Shown in pieces: positions 6,630 through 35,330 of a stretch of 35,336 nucleotides of DNA. Positions within the stretch are counted from its first letter, which is position 1; each line of letters opens with the position of its first letter. Made by a program: the position numbers and the translations under genes. The notes below the pieces were generated by a model. It worked only from the letters and a program-made list of their open reading frames with translations. It made no database searches and was not told the origin of the DNA. This DNA comes from an uncultured Acholeplasma sp. (GTDB lineage Bacteria > Bacillota_I > Bacilli_A > Acholeplasmatales > Acholeplasmataceae): assembly GCA_937868795.1 (NCBI GenBank), contig CALMNM010000136.1, positions 1 through 35,336 on the forward strand, written 5' to 3'.

Positions 6630-7010
6630 ATGGCTTGGGTAACAAGTAAGGAGGTAAAGGGGCTTGTCAGCACGTCGATGAGTAATTCGACAGTGCAGAT
6701 TATCCTCGACCTCGCCCAAGAAGAGATTGAGGAGATGGCAGGTACTTCGACGTATTCTGCCACCCTCAAAATGGCAGTTCTCAACAAAGCGTGTGCCAAC
6801 ATGATTCGTCAGATGAAAACAAGCGGAGAGTTGGCATATACTAACAAGCTCGGGGTTACGCATCAAATCAACGAAGTTGACGACATGATTAAGCACTACG
6901 ACGAGCAGGCTGCAGCATATGTCGCCAAATACAAGTTAGCAACAATAGCAGCGACTCCGCAGGTGTCGTATATTATTGCTCCTTGTGATTTCTACAGTGC
7001 GGAGGAGTGA
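6630..7010 (+). CDS. Putative head-tail connector/adaptor protein (126 aa)
   Basis: Size and position right after the capsid gene, with an SD (AAGGAGGG); no motif-level proof. Confidence 0.4.
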   Translation: MAWVTSKEVKGLVSTSMSNSTVQIILDLAQEEIEEMAGTSTYSATLKMAVLNKACANMIRQMKTSGELAYTNKLGVTHQINEVDDMIKHYDEQAAAYVAKYKLATIAATPQVSYIIAPCDFYSAEE

Positions 7011-7375
7011 TGATGAGTGACACTCCTCTCCGTAACCCCATGCAAAATGATGCTTGTTTTGTCACCCACACCGAATTAGACGTTGCTATTGAAAGGTGCA
7101 AGGCCGAATGTGCTCTGCATCGAAAAGATGCTGTAATGCTTATTGAGCGTTCTTGTCAACGTCTTCAACATGATTGCGACGATGAACAGGAAACATTTGC
7201 AGAAAAAATCGATAAGAAAATCGACAGTCTTGCTGCAAAAACCGATGTGAAGTTTGCTTCGATTATAGATGCAAATCAAAAATTCTATCGGGATGTTATC
7301 CTTACTCTCGTCGGTGTGATTGTAACACTCGCTATCGGTTTTGCTTCAATCGTTATTGCAGGTGTTTTCCAATGA
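7010..7375 (+). CDS. Membrane-anchored protein (121 aa): N-terminal coiled-coil-like soluble domain and one C-terminal TM helix (VILTLVGVIVTLAIGFASIVIAGVF)
   Basis: ATG 7010 overlaps the upstream stop (TGATG); the track start at 7007 is a GTG. The hydrophobic C-terminus is read directly. A membrane protein is unusual in the connector region; it is a holin- or spanin-like or exclusion candidate. Confidence 0.45.
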   Translation: MMSDTPLRNPMQNDACFVTHTELDVAIERCKAECALHRKDAVMLIERSCQRLQHDCDDEQETFAEKIDKKIDSLAAKTDVKFASIIDANQKFYRDVILTLVGVIVTLAIGFASIVIAGVFQ

Positions 7376-7734
7376 ATCTTGATAAAAAGATCGCAATGAT
7401 GCTAAACAAGCTTGGTAAAAATTACACGTTTTATATACGTGGTACGCCAACCGTTGAAGATGCTTTTTACAAAGATGAAACACCTACATTCACTACTATC
7501 ACCGTTAAGGCTGTAGTTTTTCCTGCTCGGGCCTACGATGTTCATTCGCATAACCTTCACCTCGAAAGACTGACAGGAATCGAATCTGTTGGTATCATTG
7601 ATGTGTTTGTTAACCAGACTGATTGTCTCATTGATGTTGATGATTTCATTGTCATTGAATCAAAAGAGTATAAAATCAAGTCCAAGGAAATCTTTGGGGA
7701 TGCATATTACATTTTCGAAGCGCATTTGGAGTAA
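7372..7734 (+). CDS. Putative head-closure / head-tail joining protein (120 aa)
   Basis: ATGA-coupled to the upstream gene; the assignment rests on position and size only. Confidence 0.35.
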   Translation: MNLDKKIAMMLNKLGKNYTFYIRGTPTVEDAFYKDETPTFTTITVKAVVFPARAYDVHSHNLHLERLTGIESVGIIDVFVNQTDCLIDVDDFIVIESKEYKIKSKEIFGDAYYIFEAHLE

Positions 7735-20895: not shown

Positions 20896-21300
20896 ATGGG
20901 TAGTTTTTCAAATTATCTCGAGGATGAACTTCTCGACCATATTACGGGCGTTGGAGCATATTCCGCACCTGCGACGGTGTATATTGCACTGTCAACTGCT
21001 GATCCGACCGAAGATGGTTCTGGCCTTGCCGAGCCGTCTGGTAACAACTATGCTCGGGCATCGGTAACCAACAGCGGAACTAACTGGGATACTTCTTCTG
21101 GTGGTGCAACCGCTAACAAGACTGCGATTACCTTCAACACCGCGAGCGGTGATTGGGGTACTATCACGCATTACGCCGTAATGGATGCATCTTCCAGCGG
21201 TAATATGCTTTGGTATGGAACGCTTACTACGAGCAAGACTGTGGGCAACGGTGACACGCCGAAATTTAACATCGGCGATCTCGATCTGACCCTCACGTAA
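20896..21300 (+). CDS. Small Gly/Thr/Ser-rich tail-fibre-associated protein (134 aa); resembles a conserved family of small 'minor tail' proteins seen next to fibre genes in other phages (from memory)
   Basis: SD GGAGGT. Motifs YIALSTADPTEDGSG...NNYARASV...ASGDWGTITHYAVMDA...GNMLWYG are read in the translation. Confidence 0.45.
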   Translation: MGSFSNYLEDELLDHITGVGAYSAPATVYIALSTADPTEDGSGLAEPSGNNYARASVTNSGTNWDTSSGGATANKTAITFNTASGDWGTITHYAVMDASSSGNMLWYGTLTTSKTVGNGDTPKFNIGDLDLTLT

Positions 21301-29757: not shown

Positions 29758-29826
29758 AATTTATCACCTTTTTTTCAAAACAAAAAAATCCAATGACCGT
29801 TTTATTGGCCCTGTAGCAAAAGGGTA

Positions 29827-30492: not shown

Positions 30493-31164
30493 TTAGCACA
30501 TCTCCTTTAGCCATTTTCTCGTCGTATGTGTGACTTTGACTTTAAGACAATTGTTCCTTGCATCATCAATAAAATCACCAAAACGTGGATACGTTTCCAT
30601 GATTTCTTTGGCCTTCTTTTCGCCAATACCCGCCATTTGACAGTAATGGACGAAATTAGGGTCAAGATCAGTAACTTTCTTTTTCTTGAATTTTGTTTCA
30701 AGTTCGGAAGCCGTTCTTATTTCACGGTGTTCGACGAACTTTCGATAGAACAGAAATATTCCATCGATGAGTTGAGTGTCGTTTGCAAATTCGACGATAT
30801 GTACGAATGGATATTTGGCTGAAATTGATGCCTTCAACCCCTTCGTATGTTCAGTAGTCCAACCCTTGATGTAATTGTTTGAGAAGTATATGTTTTCGAA
30901 CTTTCCAGATATAAAGAGGTAGGATAAAGGGAAGTTCGAATTCATGCGCTTCAGTTGGTTATCGAGGCGACCAGAACGCTTGGAGAGGATTAAATCGCTG
31001 ACAGTCTTTCTCTCGATGCAAATGTCCGATTCGAGATACTCGTCTCTCGTCCAGATATAATCCCCCGTATCCAATTCCTGAACTTCGTGAGGAATGTTCT
31101 GCTTGTTCGCTGCTTTGGTCACCCGCGCAACCATATCCTGTTCTCGTCCGTCGATCAATAGCAT
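30493..31164 (-). CDS. XPF/Mus81-type ERCC4 nuclease, short form with C-terminal HhH2 (about 223 aa)
   Basis: ERCC4 signature TGDYIW...ICIERKTVSDLILS (GDxn-ERK-x3-D) plus a helix-hairpin-helix pair (MAGIGEKKAKEIMETYP). Start set at ATG 31164, 5 nt after the primase stop; the track start at 31272 would overlap the primase gene by ~100 nt. Confidence 0.7.
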   Translation of the reverse strand: MLLIDGREQDMVARVTKAANKQNIPHEVQELDTGDYIWTRDEYLESDICIERKTVSDLILSKRSGRLDNQLKRMNSNFPLSYLFISGKFENIYFSNNYIKGWTTEHTKGLKASISAKYPFVHIVEFANDTQLIDGIFLFYRKFVEHREIRTASELETKFKKKKVTDLDPNFVHYCQMAGIGEKKAKEIMETYPRFGDFIDDARNNCLKVKVTHTTRKWLKEMC

Positions 31165-31169
31165 CCATC

Positions 31170-32186
31170 TCACCTGTAAATTGCGAGAATGTGAGAGCCT
31201 GAATCTCCCTTTTTGCAGTGAGCACAAAGTCGAGAACTTCTGCAGAAACCTTCTCGTCGTAAAGACTCGCAAGAAGGGAATAAGGATTCATCTCGCTCAT
31301 AGATGTGTTTTGCTTGCCGCTCCTCTCGTATGCAATGAACAGCCTCGGAGACTCCTCTCTTTTGTGCGGTGAGATACCGAGTAATAATATCACAGGCGTT
31401 CCCGTATAATATTCCCGAATCTCGCAGGTAAACAATAAGTAGGAATCTACCCCGCCATCCGACGCGAGTATGAGAGGCATTGGCGAGCAATGAGGCGATG
31501 CAAGGAGGCATTTGTGACAGTATTTCGTCAGAATCAATCTGCGCTTTCACCTCTTCGGTTACTTCAACCTCATAAGATGATTCTTCTGAACTATCGAAGC
31601 CAGATACATCGAATAATTCTTCTCCATTGATTTCGAATTCAAATCTCTGTTCTTTTGCAAGATTGGAATGATATTCGAAACCTTTGATGATCTCATTAGC
31701 AAAAATCGGGATGCAATATCGCTGACGTTTTGTATTCCAAGTGTTCGGAATCGTTGCAACGCGGGCAATATCACCGAAAATTGCTTTATCAAAATGACAA
31801 CAATACTCTTTCAAAAAGTAATCATGTACATTTGTCAGACAAGCTTTCTTATTCTTCAGATTTTCGTACCCCTTCGTGAAGAGGTAAACGTGGTAGCCGC
31901 CACCAGAAAAAAGCAATAAATGTTTAAGATTTGCTTTTCGAAGGTGGAATGTAAAAGCCATCGTATTTTCGAAGGCTTCTGGCCCATCAAAATCAAAGAA
32001 TATCTTGTCGAGATCGAGAGAAATTTTATCGAAGTGTTGACTTCCTGTGAAATTGTAAACAGAAGAAAACAATCTTACTTTGCCATTTAAACGATTGATT
32101 GTGGAGTAAAACTCCTTTCTATCAACCGTTTTTCTGTACGGATATGCGACCTGTCTTGGAAATGTGGAATAGAGCAGATCGTACAA
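31170..32186 (-). CDS. Archaeo-eukaryotic-type primase / primase-polymerase (AEP superfamily) (338 aa)
   Basis: AEP motifs: motif I FFDFDGPE (hhhDhD) and motif II SGGGYHVYL (sGxGxHhh). TTG start with AAGGA 8 nt upstream, immediately after the Cas4-like stop. The Cys/His-rich C-terminal region is a possible Zn-binding domain. Confidence 0.6.
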   Translation of the reverse strand: MYDLLYSTFPRQVAYPYRKTVDRKEFYSTINRLNGKVRLFSSVYNFTGSQHFDKISLDLDKIFFDFDGPEAFENTMAFTFHLRKANLKHLLLFSGGGYHVYLFTKGYENLKNKKACLTNVHDYFLKEYCCHFDKAIFGDIARVATIPNTWNTKRQRYCIPIFANEIIKGFEYHSNLAKEQRFEFEINGEELFDVSGFDSSEESSYEVEVTEEVKAQIDSDEILSQMPPCIASLLANASHTRVGWRGRFLLIVYLRDSGILYGNACDIITRYLTAQKRGVSEAVHCIREERQAKHIYERDESLFPSCESLRREGFCRSSRLCAHCKKGDSGSHILAIYR

Positions 32187-32191
32187 ATCAA

Positions 32192-32923
32192 TCAGTCCTT
32201 AATAATGTCATCGGTGTAGCCGTCACAGAGATTAATGAATTTACAATATGAACAGAGACGTGACCGACTTCTCGGAAACATTGCTCCGTCGTTACTCTTC
32301 ATATTCTCCATGTGAGCCAGCATATCAGCATAATGTTTGTCATATTCGTCTTCGTTAACGTCGATTACGAAAGTTTTCTTTGGAAATTGTGTGAAGAACA
32401 TCCCGATTTTCGATGCATTGATACCAAGACACCGACGAGCAAGTATGACATAGACATAAAGCTCGAAAATGTAATCGTCCATTTTCGGTTTATAGAATTT
32501 GCCTGTCTTGTAATCGATAATCCAATATTCACCATCTTTAAGATAAATGGCATCAATATACCCCGATAAATCAAGTTCATCATCCTCAACCCTTTGCTCA
32601 TGAAGTTCTGCCCGACCAAGACCATACTTATCAAGAATCGTGAAGAGATTTGCGAGATTCTTTTCACAGAACTGCACTCCATCGTCAGTCAAATTGATGG
32701 CATCCATATGGATATCGATAACAGATTCATCAGCATTGGGGTCATTAAATAATTCCAGAACTTTATGCACGACGTTACCGTTCTGCACCTGATGGGAAGG
32801 ACTTTCCCTAATTGACCGTCCAAGCTCTGTCCGATTCTGGAAATAGTACTGTCTCGGGCAAGTCTTGAACGTGTTAATCTTTGACTTGCTAAACGTCCTT
32901 CTTTTTACTACTTGTTCGCTCAA
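32192..32923 (-). CDS. Cas4 / RecB-family PD-(D/E)XK exonuclease with Fe-S cluster cysteines (about 243 aa)
   Basis: N-terminal Cys (TCPRQYYF), GYIDAIYL, IIDYKTGK and C-terminal C-x2-C-x5-C (CSYCKFINLC). TTG start (32923 preferred for its 6-nt spacing to GGAGGAGG). Confidence 0.7.
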   Translation of the reverse strand: MSEQVVKRRTFSKSKINTFKTCPRQYYFQNRTELGRSIRESPSHQVQNGNVVHKVLELFNDPNADESVIDIHMDAINLTDDGVQFCEKNLANLFTILDKYGLGRAELHEQRVEDDELDLSGYIDAIYLKDGEYWIIDYKTGKFYKPKMDDYIFELYVYVILARRCLGINASKIGMFFTQFPKKTFVIDVNEDEYDKHYADMLAHMENMKSNDGAMFPRSRSRLCSYCKFINLCDGYTDDIIKD

Positions 32924-32949
32924 CAACCTCCTCCGTGGTTAATTTTAAC

Positions 32950-32961
32950 TCCCCGAAGGGA
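32950..32961 (-). other. UUCG-tetraloop hairpin (minus strand UCCC-UUCG-GGGA) in the Zn-finger / Cas4 spacer
   Basis: Read directly from the reverse complement of tccccgaaggga. Confidence 0.4.
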
Positions 32962-33005
32962 AGTCGGAAAGGGGAATCGAACCCCTACTTATTTCCTTTT
33001 CCGAC
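32962..33005 (-). other. tRNA-like acceptor-stem / T-arm minihelix (not a full tRNA): 7-bp acceptor-like stem GUCGGAA/UUCCGAC, 12-nt linker, T-arm AGGGG-UUCGAUU-CCCCU, then a discriminator
   Basis: Hand-folded from the reverse complement. The T-loop UUCGAUU matches the T-Psi-C-R-A-N-Y consensus and the closing pair is G-C. The 5-prime strand overlaps the last 7 codons of the Zn-finger gene and the stop TAG lies in the T-stem. No D arm or anticodon arm can be formed. Confidence 0.45.
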
Positions 33006-33299
33006 AGATATTTTGGGAGCATTTTTGCTCCCCCTTGGCCTACCTCTCGGTTTGCCTGTTTTAATATCCGCTTTTTTATTAACGGCATTTTGTATTCTTT
33101 CCATTTTCATCTCTTCGTTACGAGTGATTTTCTTGGCAATTAATTGATAATTCTTTGGCATTGGGACAGTTTGTGCTCTTTTTGTACCGATATCAACAGG
33201 CCACCCACACCACGGACAAATTGCCCATTCATGGTCAGGCATTTTATCTTTCATATTTCCAAAATATTTGGAACAGTGGGTGCACTTGTATTCCCTCAT
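32985..33299 (-). CDS. Small zinc-ribbon protein with a C-terminal AT-hook-like motif (104 aa)
   Basis: C2C2 (CTHC...CPWC) at the N-terminus and GKPRGRPRGSKN (R-G-R-P core) at the C-terminus. The ATG abuts the RNR stop. Confidence 0.5.
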   Translation of the reverse strand: MREYKCTHCSKYFGNMKDKMPDHEWAICPWCGWPVDIGTKRAQTVPMPKNYQLIAKKITRNEEMKMERIQNAVNKKADIKTGKPRGRPRGSKNAPKISVGKGNK

Positions 33300-35330
33300 T
33301 TAGCACCTCGACCATCCACAAGCAGGACACTTTCTGCAACCCTCTTCCATAGCAATCACTTCACCACATTCAGGACACCTTGGAACATGAGTCAATTCTT
33401 TCGTCGGCAATGAGTCCATTATGATACAATTATCTTCAATCATATCACGACAAAGAATGGCCTCTTTTTCACCATATTCAAAGGTGGTGCGCTCTTCGAG
33501 AACTTTCCCGATAATGTTGGCACATGACCGTCCTGCAGACTTTGGATTTTTCATAGCAACAGGACATTCAACAGATTTGAGCGTCCTGACAATATCGGTT
33601 GCAGGGACGTTCCACCGTAATCCCAACGATATCATTAATCCAAGCGCCTCACTCATGGCGCTACAACCGCCTCCACGATTGTTAATGATGGTTTCATAAG
33701 GGTAATCGTCCATCTGATTAACGGTAATCATCAGTTTACCACATCCCGAACGCAATTTGTCGGTTGTGCCTGTGAGAACCCGTGGACGCTTCGGGAGAAG
33801 TCTTACTTCACCATCGGTAGAAACAAACGGTTGATGATGATTAATAACGCGATTAGAAGCTGACGTCGGAAGTTCTTCTTCTGACTTTACCTCTTTTTCT
33901 TTCAGAGTTAAAACTTCATCCTTACGAGAGCCTGAACGATAGAGAGTGACACCTTTACACTTTTTCTGCCATGCATAAATAACAGCCGCAGCAACGTCCT
34001 CTTTCGTAGCGCTAAATGGAAGATTGACCGTTTTGCTAACCCCAGCATCACAATAACGCTGGAAAATTGCCATGAGATCGATCTGCGTTCTCCAAAATAC
34101 ATCGAAGGTTGTTACGAGTAATCGCTGATCTTCTTCAGTAGTGTATGGAGCATCCCGAAGTGTGCCGTGTTCATAAACATACTGAATAAGCTCATTGTAT
34201 TGGCTTTCAGATAATCTATTCTTAAAGCGACTTTCAAAAATCGGATGAACAACGAAGTATTCTCGCCCAACAGTATTCTTGCGTTTCAGGACGTAAGAAA
34301 ATACAGGTTCAATTCCAGATGAACAATCAGCAAGGAACGATATAGAACCCGTCGGAGCGATACACGTCAGGGCCACGTTGCGACGCATATATCCACCATA
34401 CTTTGTATAATATGGTGAATATCCTCGAGTCTCGGCAAGTCTGGCAGAATGAATATCAGCAACCTTTTGAATAAATTTCATTACCTCTTCAGCCACGTCA
34501 TAAGAATCTTCGTGTCCATAGGGGATTCCCATTTTGAGTAACATATCGGCGAAACCCATGACACCAAGACCAATTTTTCTGGTAAATTTGGATGCTTCGT
34601 CAATTTGAGGAATCGGGTAGTTATTCATATCAATGACATTATCGAGGAATTCGACAGCATCTTTGATAATCTTTTCAAGATAATCCCAATCAATTCCACC
34701 GTATTCATCAACAAAATTTACAAGGTTAATGCTTCCAAGGTTGCAGGATTCAAAGGGGTAGAGTGGTTGCTCACCGCAGGGGTTGGTTGCAGTTATCGGG
34801 CCAAGCTTCGGTGTTGCAGCATCAGTATCGATGTTAATCCTGTCATAAAACAGGAATGATGGTTCACCGTTTGTCCACTGGTTTTCGATGATTTTATTGA
34901 ACAGGTCTTTGTTCTTGCAGGTGTATCCCTGTCCAATAACATCATTCATAAACTCATCATCAACCATCACCGAGAAATTGAAATTGGCAAGTTTCCCTTC
35001 GACGTGTTTTGCAGTAATGAACTTCTCAATATCGGGATGATCATATCGTAGGATGCCCATATTGGCTCCACGTCGGCGACCACCCTGTTTTACGGTCTCG
35101 GTAGCGGCATTGAATACTTCCATGAAAGAGAGTGGGCCTGACGCTACCCCTTTGGTAGAGCCAACGGTGGAGCCTGCTGACCGAAGGTTGGAGAAATTAA
35201 ATCCAGTTCCTCCGCCTGTTTTGTGAATGAGAGCCGTCCACTTGATAGCGTCGAAAATTTCCTCCATCGAATCACCAACAGGAAGAACAAAGCAAGCAGA
35301 AAGTTGACCAATTTCTGTGCCTGCATTCAT
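33300..35330 (-). CDS. nrdJ: Ribonucleotide reductase catalytic subunit, class II (adenosylcobalamin-dependent, NrdJ-like); N-terminus at or beyond the window edge
   Basis: Active-site region NPCGEQPLYPFESCNLGSINL and a C-terminal Cys-rich zinc ribbon (CPECGEV...CRKCPACG). At 676+ aa it is long; the first Met is 6 nt from the window end, so the true start may lie outside. Confidence 0.8.
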   Translation of the reverse strand: MNAGTEIGQLSACFVLPVGDSMEEIFDAIKWTALIHKTGGGTGFNFSNLRSAGSTVGSTKGVASGPLSFMEVFNAATETVKQGGRRRGANMGILRYDHPDIEKFITAKHVEGKLANFNFSVMVDDEFMNDVIGQGYTCKNKDLFNKIIENQWTNGEPSFLFYDRINIDTDAATPKLGPITATNPCGEQPLYPFESCNLGSINLVNFVDEYGGIDWDYLEKIIKDAVEFLDNVIDMNNYPIPQIDEASKFTRKIGLGVMGFADMLLKMGIPYGHEDSYDVAEEVMKFIQKVADIHSARLAETRGYSPYYTKYGGYMRRNVALTCIAPTGSISFLADCSSGIEPVFSYVLKRKNTVGREYFVVHPIFESRFKNRLSESQYNELIQYVYEHGTLRDAPYTTEEDQRLLVTTFDVFWRTQIDLMAIFQRYCDAGVSKTVNLPFSATKEDVAAAVIYAWQKKCKGVTLYRSGSRKDEVLTLKEKEVKSEEELPTSASNRVINHHQPFVSTDGEVRLLPKRPRVLTGTTDKLRSGCGKLMITVNQMDDYPYETIINNRGGGCSAMSEALGLMISLGLRWNVPATDIVRTLKSVECPVAMKNPKSAGRSCANIIGKVLEERTTFEYGEKEAILCRDMIEDNCIIMDSLPTKELTHVPRCPECGEVIAMEEGCRKCPACGWSRC

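Follow-up and report, generated by a model that had tools for sequence, protein, structure and literature searches.

A tRNA-like minihelix ahead of a Cas4-like nuclease gene

What does the upper half of a tRNA do when it is placed between two replication genes of an apparently viral genome? The question is raised by a contig of 35 336 nucleotides (nt) deposited under an uncultured Acholeplasma sp. (CALMNM010000136.1 of assembly GCA_937868795.1); its whole length is called the window below, and positions refer to it unless another contig is named. On the minus strand, upstream of a gene for a Cas4-like nuclease, lies an element of 56 bases in which an acceptor/T-arm minihelix is followed directly by a small hairpin and then by a Shine–Dalgarno sequence (SD) and start codons. 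We conclude with high confidence that this element is a selected RNA structure on the transcribed strand. Judging from its features, we lean towards regarding it as a virus-encoded tRNA mimic, a ‘t-element’ that would be cut by host tRNase Z and possibly by RNase P. Its parts and their immediate surroundings, in 5′ to 3′ order, are the following.

32999–33005, minus strand: 5′ acceptor strand GUCGGAA (tRNA positions 1–7), within the last codons (..S-V-G-K..) of the upstream Zn-ribbon/AT-hook open reading frame (ORF)
32987–32998, minus strand: purine-rich spacer AAGGAAAUAAGU (12 nt), in place of the D arm, anticodon arm and variable loop
32970–32986, minus strand: T arm AGGGG-UUCGAUU-CCCCU, a 5-base-pair (bp) stem and a 7-nt loop with the consensus G53 U54 U55 C56 R57 A58 .. 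C61
32963–32969, minus strand: 3′ acceptor strand UUCCGAC (positions 66–72), covarying with 32999–33005 across relatives
32962, minus strand: discriminator-position U, the same base in all relatives
32950–32961, minus strand: hairpin UCCC-UUCG-GGGA, directly 3′ of discriminator U32962
32921–32949, minus strand: A/U-rich linker (15 nt), SD GGAGGAGG (32934–32927) and TTG starts (32926 and 32923)

The minihelix part (33005–32962) comprises 12 bp (7 + 5) capped by a canonical T loop. The T-arm motif GGTTCRANYCC is met by GGTTCGATTCC at 32983–32973, which is constant in the relatives except at loop positions 57, 59 and 60, and the discriminator U is followed by UCC, i.e. the window element has no CCA. 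Within the spacer a GG occupies 32996–32995, and its 3′ end is the T of the TAG stop of the upstream ORF (32987–32985), a codon that overlaps the first two T-stem bases. A previous reading of the DNA from sequence alone (the sequence-only reading) had described the minihelix accurately, with its 7-nt acceptor complement, 12-nt spacer, perfect T arm, hairpin and SD all at the right coordinates. It had also placed the element within a 58-nt intergenic spacer, which needs correction, the 5′ acceptor strand and the 12-nt spacer being inside the upstream ORF. The distance from the element to the downstream SD is 28 nt, with the SD 15 nt past the hairpin. This leaves no space for a promoter between the hairpin and the Cas4-like start, so that the element must be transcribed with the gene; it would lie inside an mRNA, next to ORFs and on the sense strand.

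Conservation and covariation among relatives

Only seven cluster-level relatives of the Cas4-like protein were retrieved among 5.8 billion proteins, and the upstream DNA was read for all seven, on contigs from IMG/VR, JGI, ENA, Logan and one NCBI metagenome-assembled genome (MAG); digesters and sludge are among the sampled sources (for example JGI 3300025713, 3300025613 and 3300028602). The sequence-only reading had named conservation in related genomes as a point on which its proposal could fail. Each relative has the element ahead of its Cas4-like gene, at one and the same position and orientation, and all seven sequence variants (given here as 5′/3′ acceptor strands and T stem) keep the structure.

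Window: GUCGGAA / UUCCGAC; T arm AGGGG...CCCCU
L008: GUCAAGU / ACUUGAC; T arm GAGGG...CCCUC
L001: GUCAGAU / UUCUGAC; T arm AAAGG...CCUUU
L003: AUCGGAU / UUCCGAU; T arm AGGGG...CCCCU
L011: AUCGGAA / AUCCGAU; T arm GAGGG...CCCUC
L014: AUCGGAA / AUCCGAU; T arm GGAGG...CCUCC
L013: AUAGAG / CUCUAU; 7-bp T stem

Pair 7:66 is mismatched in some relatives (6 + 5 bp), L013 has 6 + 7 bp, and the spacer of the relatives measures 8–13 nt. Constant in the aligned family are the T-loop consensus (G53 U54 U55 C56 R57 A58 .. C61), the discriminator U, the U that follows it and the UCCC/GGGA stem of the hairpin. The loop of that hairpin varies (UUCG, UUUG, CUCG, AUUUU and UGAAAA); the hairpin pointed out in the sequence-only reading is therefore present with a conserved stem, but the UUCG tetraloop after which it was named is not a conserved feature.

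Covariation was counted in a hand-checked alignment of five variants, in which 96% of the cells pair. Eight of the 12 minihelix pairs are changed on both sides and none of the 12 on one side only; three of the five T-stem pairs are compensated. Column shuffles never matched the observed covariation score or percentage paired (0/500) and matched the count of pairs changed on both sides once (1/500), and when the 3′ partners were slid by 1–3 columns as a control, the pairs changed on both sides dropped to 0–2. RNAalifold, unprompted, gave the identical three helices. Two pairwise comparisons illustrate the pattern. The Cas4-like proteins of the window and L008 are 92% identical, yet four acceptor and two T-stem pairs differ between the two elements, all of them compensated. 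Between L001 and L003, the 5′ strand differs only at synonymous third-codon sites of the upstream ORF (Pro CCG/CCA and Ser UCA/UCG), and both changes are compensated in the non-coding 3′ strand.

The gene slot upstream of the element is variable: it is filled by the Zn-ribbon/AT-hook gene in the window and L008 and by an unrelated gene of 119–141 amino acids (aa) in L001, L003 and L011, while in L013 and L014 there is no gene between, and the first base of the element is also the final base of the ribonucleotide reductase (RNR) stop codon. The element is always on the sense strand, 20–34 nt ahead of an SD and start codon, and the upstream stop falls from −10 to +20 relative to acceptor nt 1, with the exception of L011, in which no stop precedes the element. 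The L013 T stem and the L025 acceptor contain G-U pairs, which would be C-A mismatches if read on the opposite strand; since they are tolerable on the sense strand only, the selected structure should be RNA, or at least a single strand, of sense polarity. The strong covariation, the presence of the element whatever the upstream gene and the sense-only G-U pairs together strongly support a selected RNA structure.

In L011 the upstream ORF (5409–5999) runs on through the hairpin and the SD and 115 nt into the nuclease gene. This read-through led the gene caller to cut the nuclease to 200 aa, the true TTG following GGAGGAGG at ~5884.

A covariance model built from the alignment (R1) found exactly one copy in the window (33005–32947; 81 bits) and one copy upstream of the nuclease gene in each relative. 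The window holds no second copy, its remaining GTTCRANYC matches being chance occurrences in coding sequence. A second, more degenerate copy (33 bits) was found at L025 11479–11534 (= L065 2394–2449), in the same virus as L001/L002, upstream of a gene of ~355 aa and just downstream of an AT-rich TTTATA/TTATATT stretch. This stretch might serve as an archaeal promoter; the primary transcript would then have the minihelix right at its 5′ end. No exact copy of the window element was found in IMG/VR, and a degenerate family pattern run against IMG/VR, genomes and metagenomes returned just the few lineages already known.

Folding, chance and RNA family models

The minimum free energy and centroid folds of the window sequence consist of the minihelix plus the hairpin and nothing else, and in every predicted fold, of the window and of the relatives, the SD is unsequestered. 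Two of 2000 dinucleotide-shuffled windows held a T arm with a perfect 7-nt acceptor complement 0–20 nt upstream, in agreement with the order of 10⁻³ estimated in the sequence-only reading; about 0.22 T arms are expected per window. The minihelix is unlikely to be a product of chance, yet would be marginal if the sequence of the window were the sole evidence.

ARAGORN called no tRNA gene anywhere in the window. In a relaxed search, the Rfam tRNA model (RF00005) covered the whole of 33005–32962 with 26.2 bits (E = 0.0034 for 601 nt), short of its gathering score of 29, and the alignment left out both the D arm and the anticodon arm. A tRNA gene, already denied by the sequence-only reading, is ruled out by the ARAGORN result, the score under the gathering level and the missing arms; the 12-nt spacer cannot form a 17-nt anticodon arm. 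The tRNA-like domain of a tmRNA was likewise rejected, as pair 3:70 is a constant C-G and not G3-U70, the spacer is 12 nt and no tmRNA was called. So was an intrinsic terminator, the hairpin being followed by GUUAAAAUUAACC and no relative having a run of four or more U. Against Rfam 15 the window gave no gathering-level match to any family, and no match at all to RF01684 (mascRNA).

Similar modules in unrelated phages

We scanned IMG/VR for a T loop followed, 10–11 nt on, by UUCCC-loop-GGGA, and at least 120 loci matched. Among the matches listed, most are genuine CCA-less phage tRNAs with the hairpin 1–2 nt past the discriminator, after which comes either the next tRNA or an SD with its ATG (L019, L027, L028, L033, L043 and others). 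The 3′ trailers of phage tRNAs may generally carry the UUCCC-loop-GGGA hairpin and, because full-length tRNAs precede the identical hairpin/SD arrangement, the minihelix sits in a tRNA's slot. In at least five unrelated groups of contigs, only 0–15 nt separate the T stem from the 5′ acceptor complement upstream of it, and the hairpin, SD and start follow.

One of these groups comprises cyanophages resembling PaV-LD. PaV-LD itself (NC_016564; L142) carries one intact minihelix–hairpin–SD module upstream of ORF025R (~14 800–14 887) and a second copy (~15 100–15 160) with an inverted T loop (AGUCGAA) and a degraded hairpin. A classical tRNA 3′ fragment with a terminator (~10 230–10 330) adjoins its integrase ORF018R, 4.5 kb from the intact module. 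None of these three features is annotated in the PaV-LD record. On another PaV-LD-like contig, a HEARO-like match (L060 5869–6084, minus strand; 58.9 bits, gathering score 83) lies near the minihelix. In a low-GC group, a type II hammerhead ribozyme is located ~190 nt upstream of the minihelix–hairpin module (L070 5958–6027 and L106 3646–3715, minus strand; 65.3 bits against a gathering score of 37), with an ORF of ~66 aa between them, so that one small gene would be flanked by two different RNA-cutting devices.

Some contigs hold several modules. L023 has three T-arm-plus-hairpin modules, and in the one examined in detail six of the seven acceptor pairs form. L096 (IMGVR_UViG_3300042465_007743) has 14 on its minus strand (2383–7217), spaced 250–520 nt apart, with a 0-nt spacer and the T loop UUCGAUU (UUCGAUC in the first copy). 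The 12 bases flanking the T loop form 11–12 of 12 pairs in 13 of these modules and eight of 12 in the first. Each module continues with one base, a UUCCCC-AUUA-GGGG hairpin, an SD and a small ORF; the 13 small ORFs (56–141 aa) differ in sequence, and the 14th copy lacks both the hairpin and a called ORF. To judge from this layout, the repeats look like a tRNA-style punctuation of a whole early-gene block. L096 had no DNA match in INPHARED.

A GG occurs 2–5 bases after the acceptor in most spacers, in the family and in the unrelated groups alike, and we suggest that it may stand in for G18G19 of the D loop and form an elbow with the T loop. The modules of L008, L020, L023, L025 and L096 and the first 48 kb of PaV-LD gave no gathering-level Rfam match, and the analogous viral modules scored 23–25 bits against RF01684 (gathering score 42.5).

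Proposed processing by host tRNA enzymes

The acceptor/T-arm helix is the part of a tRNA that is measured by tRNase Z, RNase P and the CCA-adding enzyme. The set conserved here, i.e. the 12-bp acceptor/T coaxial stack, the canonical T loop, the unpaired discriminator and the absence of CCA, corresponds to what tRNA end-processing enzymes read; together with published precedent, this leads us to propose a tRNase Z cut after U32962. tRNase Z cuts after the discriminator if the stems total at least 12 bp (PMC9141469), and in plant mitochondria, t-elements with GGTTCRANYCC guide RNase Z/P cuts from which mRNA ends arise, in some cases within ORFs (PMC1920247). That tRNA-processing enzymes recognize and cut the minihelix is suggested with moderate confidence.

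Host tRNase Z would cut just 3′ of discriminator U32962 and thereby part the RNR/Zn-ribbon message from that of the Cas4-like nuclease, the primase-like protein and the ERCC4 nuclease. The upstream RNA would keep its stop codon and end in a stable minihelix, while the downstream RNA would start, after 0–1 unpaired bases, with the UCCC/GGGA hairpin. We infer that this 5′ hairpin would shield the 5′-monophosphate end from a 5′–3′ exonuclease of the aRNase J/RNase J type: aRNase J is a 5′–3′ exonuclease conserved in Euryarchaeota (PMC7144898), and bacterial mRNAs are stabilized by 5′-terminal stem-loops (reviewed in PMC3997798). RNase P may also cut 5′ of G33005, freeing a minihelix RNA of ~45 nt. 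The sequence-only reading had offered an mRNA processing or stability signal and an attachment site (attP) as alternatives; the former would suit the selected RNA structure on the transcribed strand and the architecture of the element, while the latter is unsupported, as detailed below.

Several observations weigh against processing. The fold anticipated by the sequence-only reading is indeed predicted, but its energy is ordinary (z = −1.62 in the window, with the relatives between +0.4 and −2.5) and in most variants not significant against shuffled controls, so that stability alone cannot support the element. Mammalian tRNase ZL is inhibited by long 5′ leaders (PMC9141469), which makes the action of tRNase Z without a prior RNase P cut uncertain. 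An RNase P cut at nt 1 would in turn strip the stop codon from the upstream ORF in the window and in most relatives, meaning that either RNase P is inactive here or the upstream message is inactivated; nad6 and ccmC provide a precedent for cuts inside an upstream reading frame (PMC1920247). In tRNA arrays the identical hairpin is found between tRNAs, where 5′ protection is needless, and its role may instead be the insulation of folding. The second copy in L025 lies just past a promoter-like stretch, where the cutting of a polycistron is not an obvious need. Finally, the element is missing from Methanobacterium virus PhiF1, the one relative so far described, in which no intergenic space precedes the nuclease gene; PhiF1 is also the sole link of the window to a host.

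Alternative explanations

The tRNA mimic might never be cut and might instead act as a cis-regulatory structure of a 5′ untranslated region or intercistronic region, binding a factor (candidates being the CCA-adding enzyme, an elongation factor, a T-loop modification enzyme or the ribosome) or coupling termination to initiation at the Cas4-like gene. We consider this unlikely, though it accounts for several features. The upstream stop is nearly always inside the minihelix or adjoins it, such that a terminating ribosome must melt the structure; the second copy of L025 is in a leader right after the promoter-like AT-rich stretch; and the conserved GG of the spacer could form a tRNA-like elbow for recognition by a protein. 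Against such a role, the SD is 15 nt past the hairpin and unsequestered in the predicted folds, and the conserved features are exactly those of end-processing enzymes, with full tRNAs filling the equivalent slot in other phages.

Phages carry tRNAs that counter tRNA-directed defences, and the functional product could be the excised minihelix RNA of ~45 nt acting in trans, e.g. as a decoy or competitor for a tRNA-targeting defence nuclease or for a modifying or CCA-adding enzyme; the cutting of the mRNA would then be incidental. RNase P and tRNase Z would together excise such a discrete RNA, for which stable excised t-element RNAs (PMC1920247) and mascRNA are precedents, and the analogous modules match the mascRNA model weakly. 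This explanation is nevertheless improbable to us. The minihelix offers no anticodon arm to anticodon nucleases. The fixed order of hairpin, SD and gene and the position of the L096 copies ahead of different ORFs point to a role in cis. Moreover, the acceptor and T-stem sequences drift freely, leaving no conserved identity element beyond the T loop.

A site acting at the DNA level, either the attP core of a tRNA-targeting integrase or some other site of recombination or replication (a primase or origin hairpin, for example), is very improbable. tRNA 3′ fragments in viruses are classically attP sites, as in HF2 (PMC8707807), and the fragment with a terminator in PaV-LD does adjoin an integrase; the gene slot upstream of the element varies among relatives as at a recombination junction, and a primase-like gene is close by. 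However, no integrase domain was found in the scanned ORFs of the window, which covers about half of a ~73-kb genome, or in the Pfam tables of L008, L010, L011, L012 and L013. The 23-nt T-arm/3′-acceptor string GGGGTTCGATTCCCCTTTCCGAC had no exact match in 185 579 species-representative genomes, among which the true host may be absent, and the degenerate family pattern found no provirus in genomes, only one near-identical viral contig in a Bacteroidetes MAG, probably a mis-binned viral contig. With neither a nearby integrase nor a genome having a matching tRNA 3′ end, attP is unlikely. An attP site would also need only the 3′ part of a tRNA, whereas here the 5′ strand covaries and is kept by compensation even inside unrelated coding sequences. 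Against any DNA site stand the G-U pairs of the L013 T stem and L025 acceptor (C-A mismatches on the other strand), an orientation that is always that of the downstream gene and the presence of several copies in some genomes.

Viruses often carry tRNA genes, but the least credible explanation is a decaying, presently functionless remnant of one, even though the PaV-LD-like spacer holds a D-arm-like UAGCUC string and the window scores just under the tRNA threshold. Neutral decay would give one-sided changes that break pairs; here eight of the 12 pairs are compensated and none has a one-sided change, across lineages in which the flanking protein is just ~60% identical, and unrelated viruses share the same reduced architecture. 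Neither the DNA-site nor the remnant explanation agrees well with the covariation, the strand specificity and the multiple copies, or with the lack of an integrase and a bacterial attachment site (attB).

Genomic setting of the element

By its gene content, the window is evidently part of a tailed-virus genome. The plus strand includes genes for a major head protein, a minor tail protein and a tape-measure protein, and the minus strand carries a module encoding a class II RNR, the Zn-ribbon protein, the Cas4-like nuclease, a primase-like protein, an ERCC4 nuclease, a dTMP kinase and an SNF2 helicase. The genes next to the element are the following.

32985–33299, minus strand: upstream gene, a 104-aa Zn-ribbon/AT-hook-like protein; the 5′ half of the element falls in the 3′ end of this gene
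32192–32926, minus strand: downstream gene, the Cas4-like PD-(D/E)XK nuclease, first of a conserved triad
31170–32186, minus strand: primase-like protein, second member of the triad
30493–31272, minus strand: ERCC4 nuclease, third member of the triad

The replication module showed no DNA similarity to the phages of INPHARED. The primase-like protein had a single INPHARED match, to Methanobacterium virus PhiF1 (29.5% identity), in which the nuclease, primase-like and ERCC4 triad is found in an order identical to that of the window. On account of this common triad we take a virus of a methanogenic archaeon as the source, and the window virus would accordingly be expected to infect such a host. 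The major capsid protein matched phages of Brevundimonas and Halorubrum weakly, and the SNF2 helicase gave no hint of the host. Within the structural module only two proteins had clear Pfam or PHROG matches, i.e. a 134-aa protein (20896–21300; PF23140, podophage GP4 fiber protein gp80, E = 6e-45) and the tape-measure protein (PHROG, E = 3e-47), the remainder being weak or without any match.

Some further features of these genomes were recorded. The G+C content reaches 53% at window positions 4000–7000, a stretch that includes the major head protein gene, compared with ~38–45% over most of the remaining window. Between the dTMP-kinase and SNF2 genes, a hairpin GGCCAAU...AUUGG followed by AUUUUUUUGUUUU (29775–29812, minus strand) resembles a terminator or oligo-T stop within the replication module, directly before the SNF2 SD. 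Several relatives have an RNR intein with a LAGLIDADG homing endonuclease (~1060 aa; L001 406–3603, L010 2335–5535 and L012 640–3819), while the RNR genes of the window (33300–35330) and L008 are without it. L001 also contains, between its ERCC4 and dTMP-kinase genes and on the opposite strand to them, a 350-aa ORF (6626–7678, minus strand) that appears TnpB-like by eye (IS200/IS605; zinc-finger/RuvC-like C-terminus) and is absent from the window.

Implications

We put forward tentatively, with slightly more doubt than belief, that tailed viruses of archaea and bacteria carry recurrent ‘punctuation’ modules (minihelix, 5′ hairpin and SD) that hijack host RNase P/tRNase Z and yield stabilized monocistronic mRNAs. 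If so, these modules would be the prokaryotic-virus counterpart of mitochondrial tRNA punctuation, the element of the window representing one family among them, and prokaryotic viruses would borrow universal host tRNA-processing enzymes for mRNA maturation by means of a minimal tRNA mimic. We know of tRNA-mimic mRNA maturation documented for organelles, a few eukaryotic long non-coding RNAs and one herpesvirus, not for operons of phages or archaeal viruses, and the literature searched held no description of minihelix punctuation in such operons, an absence of evidence only, given its incomplete coverage. The proposal would also account for a recurring unannotated intergenic motif in metagenomic viral genomes, supply an annotation rule separating tRNA-like processing signals from true tRNA genes and attP fragments, and provide a compact natural part (~56 nt) for processed, stabilized polycistrons in archaea and bacteria. 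A cultured system that carries the module is available in cyanophage PaV-LD on Planktothrix.

Comparison with known systems

tRNA-like processing signals are already known from plant mitochondria, haloarchaea, MALAT1/NEAT1 and murine gammaherpesvirus 68 (MHV68). The archaeal tRNA-like elements are cut in vivo by both tRNA end-processing enzymes, giving flanking RNAs with exact ends, which implies that archaeal enzymes accept such mimics. They are likened to the present element by description and not by sequence; they are cellular or engineered rather than viral and have no known coupling of a 5′ hairpin to an SD. In mascRNA and MEN-beta (MALAT1/NEAT1) and in the tRNA-miRNA-encoded RNAs (TMERs) of MHV68, RNase P and/or tRNase Z cut a tRNA-like fold that forms part of a larger RNA. 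The TMERs have a hairpin directly after the tRNA-like part, which is freed by tRNase Z. All of these differ from the window element in being eukaryotic cloverleaf-like folds with non-coding RNA products.

The t-elements of plant mitochondria (PMC1920247) share with the window element a GGTTCRANYCC T arm, an acceptor-like stem and a location inside mRNA precursors beside ORFs. Some overlap the 3′ end of the upstream frame (nad6 and ccmC), as here, and RNase Z/P cuts that make mRNA ends have been proposed and partly shown for them (PMC1920247). Most mitochondrial t-elements derive from organellar tRNAs and keep a degenerate cloverleaf, whereas the viral family has a spacer of 8–13 nt (0 nt in L096) and a constant hairpin after the discriminator, and its carrier is a tailed virus of a prokaryote.

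tRNA-fragment attP sites, such as HrrHF2_450 of HF2 (PMC8707807) and the 10.26-kb site of PaV-LD, resemble the element in having a T arm and a 3′ acceptor strand in a viral genome. They have an integrase as neighbour, agree exactly with a host tRNA and require neither a 5′ acceptor strand nor a hairpin–SD module, none of which holds for the window. Closest in form are the synthetic acceptor/T-arm minihelices and micro-pre-tRNAs (PMC9141469), which have the identical 12-bp stack, 7-nt T loop and discriminator and on which RNase P, tRNase Z and the CCA-adding enzyme act in vitro. The L096 copies reproduce this synthetic geometry to the letter, whereas the window element differs from the laboratory constructs in being natural, conserved and genome-encoded and in having a bulge on the 5′ side. 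As read from the sequences, the architecture is distinctive in its minihelix, made of the tRNA top half and bearing a short 5′ bulge, in the obligate hairpin that comes next to the discriminator and in the SD beyond it.

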